This document shows positions 29,170-33,036 of a DNA stretch of 64,000 nucleotides, piece after piece (position 1 is the first letter of the stretch; every line of letters starts with the position of its first letter). This DNA comes from Acinetobacter sp. (GTDB lineage Bacteria > Pseudomonadota > Gammaproteobacteria > Pseudomonadales > Moraxellaceae). The translations under genes were made by a program, and so were the position numbers. The stretch lies in NCBI RefSeq assembly GCF_045628685.1, contig NZ_JAZQPV010000117.1, positions 9,312 through 73,311 of the forward strand, read 5' to 3'. The notes under the pieces are model-generated. The model was not told where the DNA came from and ran no database searches. It saw nothing but the letters and a program-made list of their open reading frames with translations.

Positions 29170-30375
29170 TTAAGCAGTTGCTTTAATGACTTCTGCAATA
29201 GACTCCGCGACATAATCAATATTGCTTAAATTTAAGCCCGCAGCACACATACGACCACTACGAACGAGATAGATAGCGTATTGATCTTTTAAGATATCAA
29301 CCTGTTCAGCCGTTAAACCGGTATAGCTAAACATACCTTGCTGTTTGACCAGATAACTAAAGTCACGTTCAGGTAGAGCTTGGCTTAATTTTTCATTCAA
29401 CATTTGACGCATTTTAATAATACGTTCGCGCATTTCAGTCAGTTCAGCTTGCCATTGTGCAGTCAAATCAGCATCATTCAGCACATTATCCACCAACAAG
29501 GCTCCAGTCGTTGCCGGGCTTGAGTAAATACGGCGTACAGTGGCTTTTAATTGACCCAATACTTTTTGAGCAGTGGCTTGATCATCACATACAAATGTTA
29601 AGCCACCGATACGCTCTCCATAGAGCGAGAAAATTTTAGAAAATGAATTGCTGACAATAAAATTCATTCCTACCTCGTCTAAGGCACGAATGGCATAGGT
29701 ATCTTGTTCTAAACCTTGACCAAATCCTTGATAAGCAATGTCTAAAAATGGAATCAGATCCTGTTTTTGCAAGACTTCAATCACTTGATCCCATTCAGCC
29801 GTTGTTAAATCGGCACCTGTCGGGTTATGGCAACAAGGGTGTAATAGCACAATACTTTTTGCCGGTAGCTGGCTCAATTTTTCAAGCATCGCGAGCACAT
29901 TGACGCCATTGGTTGCTGCATCAAAATAAGGATAGAAATGCGTGTGAATACCAGCACCATTAAAGATAGCAATGTGATTTTCCCAAGTCGGTTGGCTGAC
30001 CCAAACATCAGATTCAGGAAAATATTTTTTAAGAAAATCTGCACCGACTTTTAGTGCACCTGAACCGCCCAAAGTTTGAATGGTCACAGCACGTCCATCA
30101 CGACATGCCTGGCTTTCTTGTCCCAAAACGAGAGCTTGAGTGGCTTGGTTATAAGACTTCAAACCATCCATCGGTAAATAGAGCTTGACCTGATCATTGC
30201 TCGCTTCAATATTTTTATAAGCCGCTTTAACGGCATTGAGTTGAGGAACAATATTGTCTTCATTGTAGTACAAGCCAATACTTAGATTAACTTTATGAGA
30301 GCGTTGGTCTTTTCCAAACTCTTCCATCAGAGAAAGAATCGGATCTCCTGCATAAGTATCAACATGTTGAAACAT
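29170..30375 (-). CDS. Aromatic-amino-acid/aspartate aminotransferase (AspC/TyrB family)
   Basis: 401 aa from [14 protein letters not shown]; [19 protein letters not shown]-lysine motif. Confidence 0.9.
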
Positions 30376-30407
30376 GAATACATCCTTCGTTATATGTAGT
30401 AAACAAA

Positions 30408-31320
30408 TCAAGCCTTCTGAACAAATCGCATTTTATCTTTTAATGCCAATTGAGGGTCGGTTATTTTTTTATTTTTAAAATAATAGGCAATCGACAGAAA
30501 GCTAATCCAGATAGGAATCGTCATCACAGCACTGCGCATATCTGGAGTTTGGCTCATAATCAGAAAAATGCCGCACATAAAGATAATGTAGATATAATTT
30601 GTAAAAGGATAGGCAATACTTGGAAATTGCGTCGATGCATTTATCGCGATCTTATGTTTCTTAAATTTCAGATGCGTATATAAAATGATCACCAAGTTAA
30701 TCACAATTGCTGCAATCATCAGGCTAAACGCTTTTTAAAGCTTAAAACCGTCGCGACGGTTTGACTGCCTAGCAAGTCAAAGATCAGCACAAAAGGACTC
30801 CATTTGATTCCATGGATAAAGCGACAAAATAATCACCAGACTTAATATATAAAATAACAGGACCCGATACACAATCTGGTTGATGGCTTTAGGTGAGGTT
30901 TTTTGCGGATTATCCGTTTCTGTAGCGGCAATGCCGACCAATTCAATGTTACCAAAAGCAAATATAATCATCACCATTGCCATGACCAATCCCATAACAC
31001 CATTCAGGAAGAAGCCGCCTAATTCCCATAAATTTTGCAGACTCGATTGTATGTCACCACTTCCAGTTGCGAGTAAATAACTGCTAAAAGCAATCATGGC
31101 CAGTACTTTAATAATGGCGAGCCAAAACTCCATTTCACCAAATAATTTAACGTGTAAAAGATTAATCATATTGATGAAAATAAAGAATCCCAGTGCAGAA
31201 ACCTAAGTCGGAATTCCCGGCCACCAGTAATGAATATAAAGACTAATCGCGCTGAGTTTCGCCATACAGACCAGAATATTCAAAACCCAGTAATTCCATC
31301 CAGATATCCGTAATTGTTTT
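30408..31320 (-). pseudogene. aroP: Decayed aromatic amino-acid permease (APC family, AroP-like)
   Basis: Fragments align to AroP as I recall it (SGWNYWVLNILV...WWPGIPT*VSALGFF...FGEMEFWLAIIKV...; SPFVLIF in a shifted frame; C-terminal MIAAIVINLV...HLKFKK). The lesions are 5' truncation, in-frame TAG at 31203-31205, a frameshift near 30790 and an internal deletion near 30740. Confidence 0.8.
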
Positions 31321-31599
31321 TTTGTAACTGAGATTTTTTAAACATCAACCTGCGAAAACAAAAACTAATTTTATTTTATTTATTAATATTTTAAATCATT
31401 CGTTTTGAGAGAAGAGATGAAAATTATTAAATCAAAATTAACCTTGGTACATAATTGAAGCTAAATGATTAAGGCATCAATCTGTTATAAGGCGTTCTCG
31501 TCTACATATAAAAGTATAAAGCTCAATCTTCTAATATTTTTTAAACAATATATAAGTAAAAGTTGACTGATTTATGTATTTTTATTTTGTATAAAACGC

Positions 31600-31663: not shown

Positions 31664-31720
31664 ATGTTAAAGCAACCAGTCATCTCAAACGTACGTTATT
31701 ATTTTTGGCAATTTAGATAG
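31664..31720 (+). CDS. Leader peptide 1, aromatic-codon rich (MLKQPVISNVRYYFWQFR)
   Basis: 18 codons with the run Tyr-Tyr-Phe-Trp-Gln-Phe just before the stop, followed directly by alternative helices and a terminator. Weak Shine-Dalgarno. Confidence 0.6.
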   Translation: MLKQPVISNVRYYFWQFR

Positions 31721-31767
31721 TTGCCTGAACGCGTTCGGGCAAGAAATGGTTGCCCACCAAGTTTTAT

Positions 31768-31799
31768 AACCTGATCGGCAACCCTGATCAGGTTTTTTT
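31768..31799 (+). terminator. Attenuator terminator upstream of the DAHP synthase gene
   Basis: Stem aacctgatc/gatcaggtt (core 31770-31776 with 31786-31792), 9-nt loop, seven T residues 31793-31799. Confidence 0.75.
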
Positions 31800-31834
31800 A
31801 TACTTTATTTTTTATACATTTTTGGAGTTACTTC

Positions 31835-31939
31835 ATGAAAACATTAAATTACTCATATTTTAGCAACTCTTATTGGTTTTATTTTAGTCAAGTAATGACT
31901 TTTGCCTCGCAATCCATTAGACCCATAACGCTCAAATAA
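31835..31939 (+). CDS. Leader/upstream ORF 2, aromatic-codon rich (MKTLNYSYFSNSYWFYFSQVMTFASQSIRPITLK)
   Basis: 34 codons; GGAG 7 nt upstream of the ATG; 8 aromatic residues within positions 6-17; stop 35 nt before the DAHP synthase ATG. Confidence 0.55.
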   Translation: MKTLNYSYFSNSYWFYFSQVMTFASQSIRPITLK

Positions 31940-31974
31940 AAGATTGGACTGAAAAAAGTCCTCAGGAAAGACCA

Positions 31975-33036
31975 ATGAATGCTTTAAATAATGCTTTACA
32001 ACAAATGCAAACGACTGTAAACGAAACCATTTTAAGTTTGCCTCATCAATTGAAGGCACAATTGCCTTTATCAGCAAAATTAGCTCAACAAATTGCCGAG
32101 CAGCGTCAAACCATTCAAAACATTTTAGATGGCAAAGATCATCGTTTGATGGTGATAACAGGTCCATGTTCAATTCACGATCCTATCTCTGCACTTGAAT
32201 ATGCTGAAAAATTAAAACAATTACAATGCCAAGTCGCTGATCAAATTTTTCTGGTGATGCGAGCATATATCGAAAAACCACGTACCACCATTGGCTGGAA
32301 AGGTTTTCTGTATGACCCAAATTTAGATGGTTCATCAAATATGCAATTGGGCTTAGAAAAATCACGCGAGTTATATTTACAAATTATAGAAATGGGGTTG
32401 CCCATTGCCTCGGAAATTTTAAGCCCGATGGCGACTGCATATTTCGATGATTTACTGACTTGGGGCGCAATTGGTGCACGTACCAGTGAATCGCAAATTC
32501 ACCGTGAAATTTCAAGCCATATGCCGTACAGCATTGGGTTCAAAAATGGCACAGATGGCTCTATTCAAATTGCACTTGATGCTATTCAATCGGCTACACA
32601 TCCACATCAATTTTTAGGCATGAGTCAGTCAGGCTTACCATGTATTTTAGAATCTAAGGGCAATCGCAAAGCACATTTGATTTTACGCGGTGCAAATTCG
32701 GGGCCTAACTACGCATTGGCTGAAATTGAGAAAATTAAAGAAAAAGCCAAGGATGAATTGCCGGCTTTAGTGATTGACTGTAGCCATGGTAACAGCCACA
32801 AAAACCCATTATTACAACCCGAAGTTTTGCGTACCATTGTGGATGAACGCACACAAACCCATGTTCGTGGCGTGATGTTAGAAAGCCATCTGGTCGATGG
32901 TCAGCAAAAGATTTCTTGTGAAATGACCTATGGTCAATCTATAACAGATGGTTGTTTAGGTTGGGATAAAACACAACAAATTTTACTGGAGGTTACCAAT
33001 TCTCTACGCGTTGCTCAATTAAAGCGTAGTGCTTAA
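31975..33036 (+). CDS. 3-deoxy-7-phosphoheptulonate (DAHP) synthase, class I (AroF/G/H type; isozyme not assignable by eye)
   Basis: 353 aa with GPCSIHD, KPRT and IDCSHGNS motifs. Confidence 0.95.
   Translation: MNALNNALQQMQTTVNETILSLPHQLKAQLPLSAKLAQQIAEQRQTIQNILDGKDHRLMVITGPCSIHDPISALEYAEKLKQLQCQVADQIFLVMRAYIEKPRTTIGWKGFLYDPNLDGSSNMQLGLEKSRELYLQIIEMGLPIASEILSPMATAYFDDLLTWGAIGARTSESQIHREISSHMPYSIGFKNGTDGSIQIALDAIQSATHPHQFLGMSQSGLPCILESKGNRKAHLILRGANSGPNYALAEIEKIKEKAKDELPALVIDCSHGNSHKNPLLQPEVLRTIVDERTQTHVRGVMLESHLVDGQQKISCEMTYGQSITDGCLGWDKTQQILLEVTNSLRVAQLKRSA

Follow-up and report, generated by a model that had tools for sequence, protein, structure and literature searches.

A conserved second leader frame between a transcription attenuator and the DAHP synthase gene of Acinetobacter: a candidate translation-level attenuator

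Why would a biosynthetic gene that already stands behind one aromatic-codon leader peptide and its terminator be preceded by another leader frame rich in codons of the same class? The question is raised by a 64,000-nucleotide stretch of an Acinetobacter sp. genome (contig NZ_JAZQPV010000117.1, positions 9,312 to 73,311 of the forward strand; hereafter the window). [quoted passage not shown] A sequence-only reading of this DNA had offered two explanations, a tandem, two-tier sensor or a duplicated leader in decay, and had described the arrangement as one not known from attenuators. We find that uORF2 is, with good probability, a conserved and translated regulatory leader ORF. We give an even chance to the more specific proposal that it forms a second, translation-level attenuator tier, acting on those transcripts that have passed the upstream terminator.

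Conservation of the second leader frame

The sequence-only reading had described a GGAG Shine-Dalgarno (SD) sequence 7 nt before an ATG that opens a 34-codon ORF, and a gap of 35 nt from the end of this ORF to the DAHP synthase ATG (31975), in which a small hairpin abuts the AGGAAAG of the enzyme. All of these coordinates are correct in the sequence (Table 1). The product of uORF2 is MKTLNYSYFSNSYWFYFSQVMTFASQSIRPITLK, its stop codon TAA occupies 31937-31939, and a recount of residues 6-17 returned the eight aromatics that had been claimed (Y, Y, F, Y, W, F, Y, F). It had also been stated that no T-tract terminator follows uORF2, and our terminator scan agrees: on the plus strand it found none past 31794, and the sole T-tract terminator that it did find is the one of the upstream attenuator (31768-31794). 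Hence, even though uORF2 is an aromatic-enriched leader ORF, it is not a classical transcription attenuator of the trp, phe or his type, since it has no terminator.

We compared 105 orthologous Acinetobacter loci, whose sequences are related, so that all counts below are of non-independent events; the closest named relatives of the window's organism are A. sp. TSRC1-2 and A. terrae. The two leader ORFs co-occur in relatives: tier 1 is present in all Acinetobacter loci read, and the aromatic core motif and a terminal A(A/G)A-TAA of uORF2 lie in one frame in 101 of the 105. Three diverged loci retain an aromatic-rich ORF with a different end. Among the carriers of uORF2 is A. soli (L109), a relative of A. 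baylyi ADP1, so the element is found in genera to which standard laboratory strains belong. The core Tyr, Phe and Trp residues are invariant or nearly so among 74 distinct sequences, while at Tyr(-6), Asn(-9), Tyr(+2) and Gln(+5), with the Trp as the zero position, synonymous codons alternate (TAT/TAC, AAC/AAT, CAA/CAG) with codon positions 1 and 2 fixed. The Trp is followed by 15, 16, 17 or 20 residues, so every linker indel is a multiple of three. The SD, as GGAG or as AGGAG/GAGGA, keeps the same spacing in almost all of 75 distinct variants. The shared frame, the synonymous variation and the kept SD argue that uORF2 is a translated frame and not a chance ORF or a decaying duplicate.

Several Acinetobacter loci depart from this pattern or stand out in other ways. 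The uORF2 of one genome (L023, G015) carries a 1-nt deletion, TTTAGC to TTTGC, that shifts the frame, and the nucleotides 3' of the deletion stay conserved; it is either a sequencing error or a recent loss. A contig labelled Bacteroidaceae bacterium (L110, CAVBYE010000144.1) encodes an Acinetobacter-type DAHP synthase (76% identity) behind both leaders and is probably mis-binned. Beside the DAHP synthase locus of a divergent Acinetobacter (L024, G017), at approximately 1010-1230 in the stored orientation, the 8-mer GATTCCAT is repeated in tandem in approximately 25 copies.

The cassette extends to the Pseudomonadaceae, where its first tier is the Rfam family P15 (RF00627). In the window this family gives a weak match over tier 1 (31693-31794, 23 bits, below the gathering score), and the Rfam search returned no family match over uORF2. 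Among 41 sampled Pseudomonadaceae genomes, P15 lies above the cut-off in 25 and reaches an E-value of up to 0.001 in 27, in 14 of 21 genera. Of the 27 Pseudomonadaceae loci examined, 26 carry a second ORF, placed after the P15 terminator and before the DAHP synthase ATG. Its SD is of the GAGGA type and its length is 29-50 codons (29-36 in all but one); the N-terminal half is rich in Tyr and Arg and differs in length between loci. A block of nucleotides that encodes W-R-F-S, C-UGG-CGA-UUU-AGC, is invariant or nearly so over 14 genera, the distance from its Trp to the stop is fixed at 17-18 codons with tails such as CGA-ACA-CCC-AGA-UAG, and the stop is almost always UAG. After the stop comes a GC-rich hairpin of 9-14 bp, which begins 0-3 nt past the stop and ends just before the SD. 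The two families' versions of uORF2 have in common only the aromatic richness, W-x-F-S and the tail, their N-terminal halves being unrelated in sequence; the mean number of aromatic residues per variant is 9 in Acinetobacter and 6, mostly Tyr, in Pseudomonadaceae.

The downstream genes are related as well. The Pseudomonas enzymes are 53-55% identical to that of the window, compared with 45% for the second DAHP synthase of the window's own genome, and the other Moraxellaceae genera have only this distant (second-type) paralog. The P15-linked second ORF and the enzyme identities together indicate that the cassette of tier 1, uORF2 and gene is common to Acinetobacter and the Pseudomonadaceae, and it is probably of common descent, judging from sequence comparison. 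A leader of this kind was absent upstream of the five second-type genes (45-50% identical) that were read in other families of the order. The second ORF is present in one locus from another family (L114). In a further locus from another family of the order (L113, G081), the leader peptide and terminator are of the P15 kind (64.5 bits, under the cut-off) and the DAHP synthase SD comes directly after them; having no second ORF, this locus is a natural tier-1-only variant. A class-wide pattern search of 401 genomes with the Pseudomonas motif returned one known locus and one chance match upstream of an unrelated gene.

The RF00627 model stops at the terminator stem, and uORF2 begins approximately 45-90 nt further downstream, outside the model. 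No uORF2 peptide matched NCBIfam (six peptides, E up to 10) or Pfam (two peptides, E up to 1), and exact protein look-up turned up nothing but Pseudomonas entries, unnamed or "hypothetical", and none from Acinetobacter.

Predicted pairing and stop-to-start geometry

We folded the leader of the window by minimum free energy (MFE) and centroid, and 63 distinct Acinetobacter variants and the leaders of 24 Pseudomonadaceae genomes by partition function, taking -14 to +6 as the start region of the enzyme. In the window, 31870-31880 (UUAUUGGUUUU, codons 12-16 of uORF2) is predicted to pair with 31968-31978 (AAGACCAAUGA), which covers the last part of the SD, the spacer and the AUG, and the pairing would continue with 31862-65 against 31980-83 and 31856-60 against 31986-90. 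According to the partition function, the start region has the 5' half of uORF2 as its largest partner class in 51 of 63 Acinetobacter variants and 17 of 24 Pseudomonadaceae genomes. This half takes a mean of 50% and 34% of the start-region nucleotides, respectively, and every other class takes at most 6%. The predicted register differs by clade: it lies at the Trp codon in the window's clade, approximately 18 nt upstream in the group of A. lwoffii and A. schindleri, approximately 28 nt upstream in the L014/L015 clade and approximately 37 nt upstream in the A. bereziniae group. For many Pseudomonadaceae, CUGGCG is predicted to pair with CGCCAG in the spacer. In most Acinetobacter, codons 1-7 of the enzyme (ATGAATGCTTTAAATAC..., 31975-31995) keep their nucleotide sequence and the next 10-15 codons vary freely, which would fit the predicted pairing of these first codons with uORF2 codons 8-11.

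Two side observations concern the Pseudomonadaceae block itself. It is invariant or nearly so despite the non-preferred codons CGA and UUU (L111-L139, approximately 130-210 nt past the P15 match), and its complement CGCCAG occurs in the enzyme spacer of only about 10 of 27 loci.

A 30-nt mask was slid along the leader, and the predicted accessibility of the start site was computed for each position. Masks centred -24 to +18 from the Trp codon raised accessibility by 0.09 to 0.18 in Acinetobacter, with a gain above 0.05 in 51-78% of variants, and in Pseudomonadaceae masks centred on the aromatic codons raised it by 0.06 to 0.09. With the mask centre 30 nt or more downstream the change was approximately zero, and masks further upstream gave at most +0.05. 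In about half of the species, the native core masks the start site more strongly than its dinucleotide shuffles do, and duplex energies are moderately better than those of dinucleotide shuffles (z = -1.4 on average; p up to 0.05 in 26 of 71). Pairs in the window's register are compatible in 73-87% of cells across 87 sequences, with 2-61% for slid-partner controls; the structure tested was derived from one of the 87.

In both families uORF2 ends in a series of the rarest codons. Those of the window, AGA, CCC, AUA, ACG and CUC, make up 7, 14, 7, 17 and 6% of their synonymous sets, as counted in its long ORFs, and in Pseudomonadaceae the values are 11% for CGA, 5% for ACA, 1% for AGA and 19% for UUU. 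In the Acinetobacter variants the third codon positions of this tail are conserved as strongly as the first and second. A pairing of the tail's AGACCC with the Trp-Phe codons was considered and rejected on reading the alignment, given that it is broken without compensation in the AGATCC clades.

The linear distance from the uORF2 stop to the enzyme SD is 24 nt in the window, 22-32 nt in most of the genus, and ranges from 22 to 34 nt overall. With the intervening hairpin folded out, 64 of 72 Acinetobacter variants have a distance of 7-8 nt and 24 of 27 Pseudomonadaceae variants one of 0-5 nt; where a variant has no hairpin, 0-6 nt separate the stop itself from the SD. Of 72 distinct Acinetobacter gaps, 70 contain a hairpin, which begins exactly 6 nt past the stop in 56 of the 70, as it does in the window, where it ends 2 nt short of the SD. 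Its cells are paired in 99% of cases, with a few compensatory variants (for example L106, L094 and L020). With a stop codon in the A site, a point 6 nt past the stop is approximately at the edge of the ribosome, at the mRNA channel. In both families the hairpin precedes an SD and not a U run. The common rule is that uORF2 translation ends at, or effectively beside, the ribosome-binding site of the enzyme. One divergent Acinetobacter locus (L142, G559; locus 1324-1476) is without the stop-hairpin-SD arrangement; its 50-codon second ORF overlaps the DAHP synthase ATG out of frame.

Table 1 Features of the DAHP synthase leader and gene (positions in the window).
Feature	Position	Strand	Basis
Tier 1 leader peptide ORF, MLKQPVISNVRYYFWQFR and stop	31664..31720	+	Translation; kept in all Acinetobacter loci read
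Tier 1 intrinsic terminator, 11-bp stem then T run	31768..31801	+	Terminator scan (31768-31794)
uORF2 SD GGAG, ATG 7 nt further on	31824..31827	+	Sequence
uORF2, 34 codons and TAA	31835..31939	+	Sequence; comparative frame conservation; codon-position pattern
Aromatic sensor core (putative), codons 6-17 (YSYFSNSYWFYF); Trp14 at 31874-31876	31850..31885	+	Conservation
Predicted long-range helix, 5' strand (31856-60, 31862-65, 31870-80)	31856..31880	+	MFE and centroid
Rare-codon tail AGA CCC ATA ACG CTC AAA TAA	31919..31939	+	Codon usage; third-position conservation
Hairpin GGACU/AGUCC, arms 31946-31950 and 31957-31961	31946..31961	+	Sequence, folding
DAHP synthase SD AGGAAAG	31964..31970	+	Sequence
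Predicted long-range helix, 3' strand (SD end, spacer, AUG, codons 2-6)	31968..31990	+	Folding
Class I DAHP synthase, AroF/G/H family, regulated gene	31975..33036	+	PF00793 (Pfam), NF009395 and TIGR00034 (NCBIfam)

A translation-level attenuator and its alternatives

From the comparative sequence data and the predicted folds we infer translation of uORF2, stalling, and the direction and size of the effect on the enzyme, as follows. When aromatic amino acids are plentiful, ribosomes would load at the strong SD of uORF2, traverse the 12-codon Tyr/Phe/Trp run, slow down on the rare-codon tail and terminate at a stop that, with the hairpin folded, is 7-8 nt from the enzyme SD. Behind them the vacated, U-rich aromatic-codon segment could pair with the SD, spacer and AUG (31856-31880 with 31968-31990), and the terminating ribosome and the sensor pairing would both hold enzyme initiation low. 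When charged tRNA-Tyr, tRNA-Phe or tRNA-Trp is scarce, a ribosome would stall on codons 6-17 and occupy the complementary segment, the end of uORF2 would stay empty, and the SD and AUG of the enzyme would be freed, so that its translation would go up. This would be leader-peptide translational attenuation in tandem after a transcription attenuator, with the hairpin-bridged stop-to-SD geometry as its unusual part, and we hold this assignment with middling confidence. The earlier idea of a tandem, two-tier sensor working on translation fits the conservation throughout the genus and the Pseudomonadaceae and the lack of a terminator of its own; the regulatory function that it assumed is the part that we can only infer.

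Some observations weigh against the attenuator. The predicted pairing exceeds composition-matched shuffles in only about half of the species and is not predicted in approximately 20-30% of variants, no convincing compensatory double changes were found for it in the 87 sequences, and the leader of the window folds no more stably than its shuffles (z = -0.64). Moreover, a purine-rich start site will readily form pairs with U-rich aromatic codons anyway. Occlusion of the SD by way of the bridge would need the hairpin to stay intact beside a ribosome at the stop, and in Pseudomonadaceae, where the stem begins 0-3 nt past the stop, its base would be unwound. The model also leaves unexplained the invariance of C-UGG-CGA-UUU-AGC, the fixed distance of 17-18 codons from Trp to stop and the preference for UAG in Pseudomonadaceae.

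The strongest of the alternatives, which we still consider unlikely, is positive translational coupling, in which ribosomes that end uORF2 open the hairpin or pass on to the SD, and starvation lowers the enzyme. The tight effective distance from stop to SD and a hairpin that abuts the SD would also suit a termination-reinitiation or unfolding device, and the uORF2 of L142 overlaps the gene start. However, the SD itself lies outside the hairpin, masking the stop region gives no rise in predicted start-site accessibility, and the sign of the response would be anti-homeostatic for the first enzyme of the pathway and opposed to that of tier 1.

Slightly less probable is a mechanism based on Rho or mRNA decay, by which ribosome occupancy of uORF2 would gate the access of Rho or RNase E and thereby act on completion or stability of the transcript and not on initiation. 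The composition is suitable, with G at 11% in Acinetobacter uORF2 versus 20% in the gene, at 19-21% versus 32% in Pseudomonadaceae, and with C exceeding G, and a hairpin at the 5' side of a processed mRNA could stabilise it. Such a mechanism leaves the tight stop-hairpin-SD geometry unexplained, and a ribosome stalled in the core would bare the C-rich tail and so favour Rho in starvation, which is the wrong sign. Sign is the main argument here: coupling and Rho are both disfavoured because both would lower expression in starvation, and an attenuator is the only reading in which a run of aromatic codons before a biosynthetic gene acts homeostatically. Given that uORF2 is G-poor and C exceeds G, Rho-dependent polarity is possible as an amplifier added on to the attenuator.

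An arrest peptide of the TnaC/SpeFL type has about the same low probability as the Rho mechanism. In this case the nascent W-x-F-S and R-x-x-x before the stop would sense a free aromatic amino acid, and sensing in the exit tunnel would stall the ribosome at the stop beside the enzyme SD and repress the enzyme. This would account for the invariant W-R-F-S and for a Trp-to-stop distance of 17-18 residues that is kept over 14 Pseudomonadaceae genera despite the variable N-terminal length; an Arg conserved 4-6 residues before the stop in both families, the UAG stop in Pseudomonadaceae, the rare-codon tail and the closeness of stop and SD are also in its favour. Against it, the Trp-to-stop spacing varies in Acinetobacter (15, 16, 17 or 20 residues) and there is no similarity to known arrest-peptide families. 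Moreover, what is conserved in the tail and in W-R-F-S is the nucleotide sequence, including third positions and the choice of rare synonymous codons, which points to RNA or decoding speed and not to peptide chemistry. A shade less probable again is a dual sensor, in which the aromatic codons would read tRNA charging and the nascent peptide would arrest on a free aromatic amino acid, parking the ribosome at the UAG or UAA stop beside the DAHP synthase SD by means of the hairpin bridge. If true, this would be the first case of an arrest peptide that serves to repress a gene for biosynthesis.

It is very improbable that uORF2 encodes a small protein with its own function in trans, its position reflecting operon organisation only. 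The ORF is conserved, its SD is strong and gene callers occasionally annotate the Pseudomonas version as a hypothetical protein, but the peptide is very short, of low complexity and aromatic, its N-terminal halves are unrelated between the families, it belongs to no Pfam or NCBIfam family, and it always lies in the same leader, between the terminator and the same gene. A chance open frame or the duplicated leader in decay of the sequence-only reading can practically be dismissed, although TTT and TAT codons arise easily in AT-rich DNA and the UGG...UUUAG motif common to both leaders is compatible with an old duplication, because the frame, SD and aromatic core are kept in 101 of 105 Acinetobacter and 26 of 27 Pseudomonadaceae P15 loci, together with the stop-hairpin-SD geometry.

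If translation-level attenuation by uORF2 is true, the entry enzyme of the aromatic pathway would be controlled twice by ribosomes in Acinetobacter and many Pseudomonadaceae, at termination and then at initiation on the transcripts that escape, with both tiers relying on runs of the same codons. It would add a widespread Gram-negative case to a very short list of tandem sensors that act on transcription and then on translation, and the DNA that separates the "P15 sRNA" (small RNA) from its downstream gene would acquire a function. The hairpin that brings a leader stop next to the following ribosome-binding site would be a new structural device.

Some further features of the locus concern its transcripts and neighbours. 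Assembled RNA contigs from four runs include one contig that extends approximately from the upstream promoter through uORF2 into the gene; the contigs carry no strand information. A weak sigma-70-like site (TCGGCA, 18 nt, TATACT) at 31775-31804 on the plus strand overlaps the tier 1 terminator and would begin transcripts just 5' of the uORF2 SD. In a relative, the RNA contigs begin at the upstream promoter and not at this site. An internal promoter in the uORF2 tail or over the terminator was rejected, since the hexamers match poorly and promoter-like sites are just as numerous as expected from shuffles. A fusion of uORF2 with the enzyme by read-through or frameshift was likewise rejected, given that the frames differ and the length of the gap varies irrespective of frame. 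Further upstream, between an aromatic aminotransferase gene (29170-30411) and the DAHP synthase promoter, an AroP-like amino-acid permease frame on the minus strand (30408-31350) is split among several short ORFs that lie in different frames. It has the look of a pseudogene, in an aromatic locus that is otherwise intact.

Comparison with known systems

In our literature search, the coverage of which is incomplete, the second ORF was not described, and a 2026 study of leader-peptide attenuation in P. aeruginosa treats trp leaders only. Livny et al. 2006 list P15 among sRNAs, give a gene of 1092 nt at a distance of 221 nt downstream and mention neither reading frame (PMC1524904); in the Pseudomonadaceae P15 constitutes tier 1, and the homologous second ORF comes directly after it. 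In Corynebacterium glutamicum, a Phe-Tyr-Phe leader peptide with a predicted role as attenuator precedes the DAHP synthase gene aroF (PMC4046766). It differs from the present locus in having a single leader ORF with a transcription attenuator, and a second ORF is not reported.

The proposed release of the enzyme start resembles translational attenuation of ermC and cat (PMC5499644), where a stalled ribosome on an upstream ORF remodels the mRNA and exposes the downstream ribosome-binding site. In those systems the stall depends on a drug and the peptide, whereas a shortage of charged tRNA is proposed here, and the masking helix of the present leader is predicted to be long-range and to enclose a separate hairpin.

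Two short ORFs in one 5' leader are known from Salmonella mgtCBR, whose mgtM and mgtP its authors call a singular example (PMC3641672). There the two ORFs are translated and one codon run senses charged tRNA, as a codon run would here. However, both mgtCBR ORFs control transcription, in response to ATP and proline, whereas the second ORF here is without a terminator and both ORFs here are rich in the same codon class.

By analogy, the closest precedent is the anti-TRAP operon of B. subtilis, in which uncharged tRNA-Trp induces both transcription and translation (PMC4027176). With this operon and mgtCBR as precedents of the same kind, to call the arrangement at the DAHP synthase gene one not known was too strong. 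In work by Chen and Yanofsky (Mol Cell 2004), anti-TRAP (rtpA/yczA) is reportedly preceded by a T-box terminator and then by a Trp-codon leader peptide, rtpLP; a ribosome that completes rtpLP is said to block the nearby SD, and stalling at the Trp codons to free it. In both systems one leader carries a transcriptional sensor with a terminator and, after it, a short ORF in which codons for the same amino acid abound. They differ in that tier 1 is a ribosome-mediated attenuator here and a T-box there, and in that the regulated gene here encodes a biosynthetic enzyme and there an anti-regulator. In addition, uORF2 is three times longer, would respond to three amino acids and is also predicted to pair with the enzyme start, and its stop is brought close to the SD by a conserved hairpin, whereas in the anti-TRAP operon the two are close by linear proximity.

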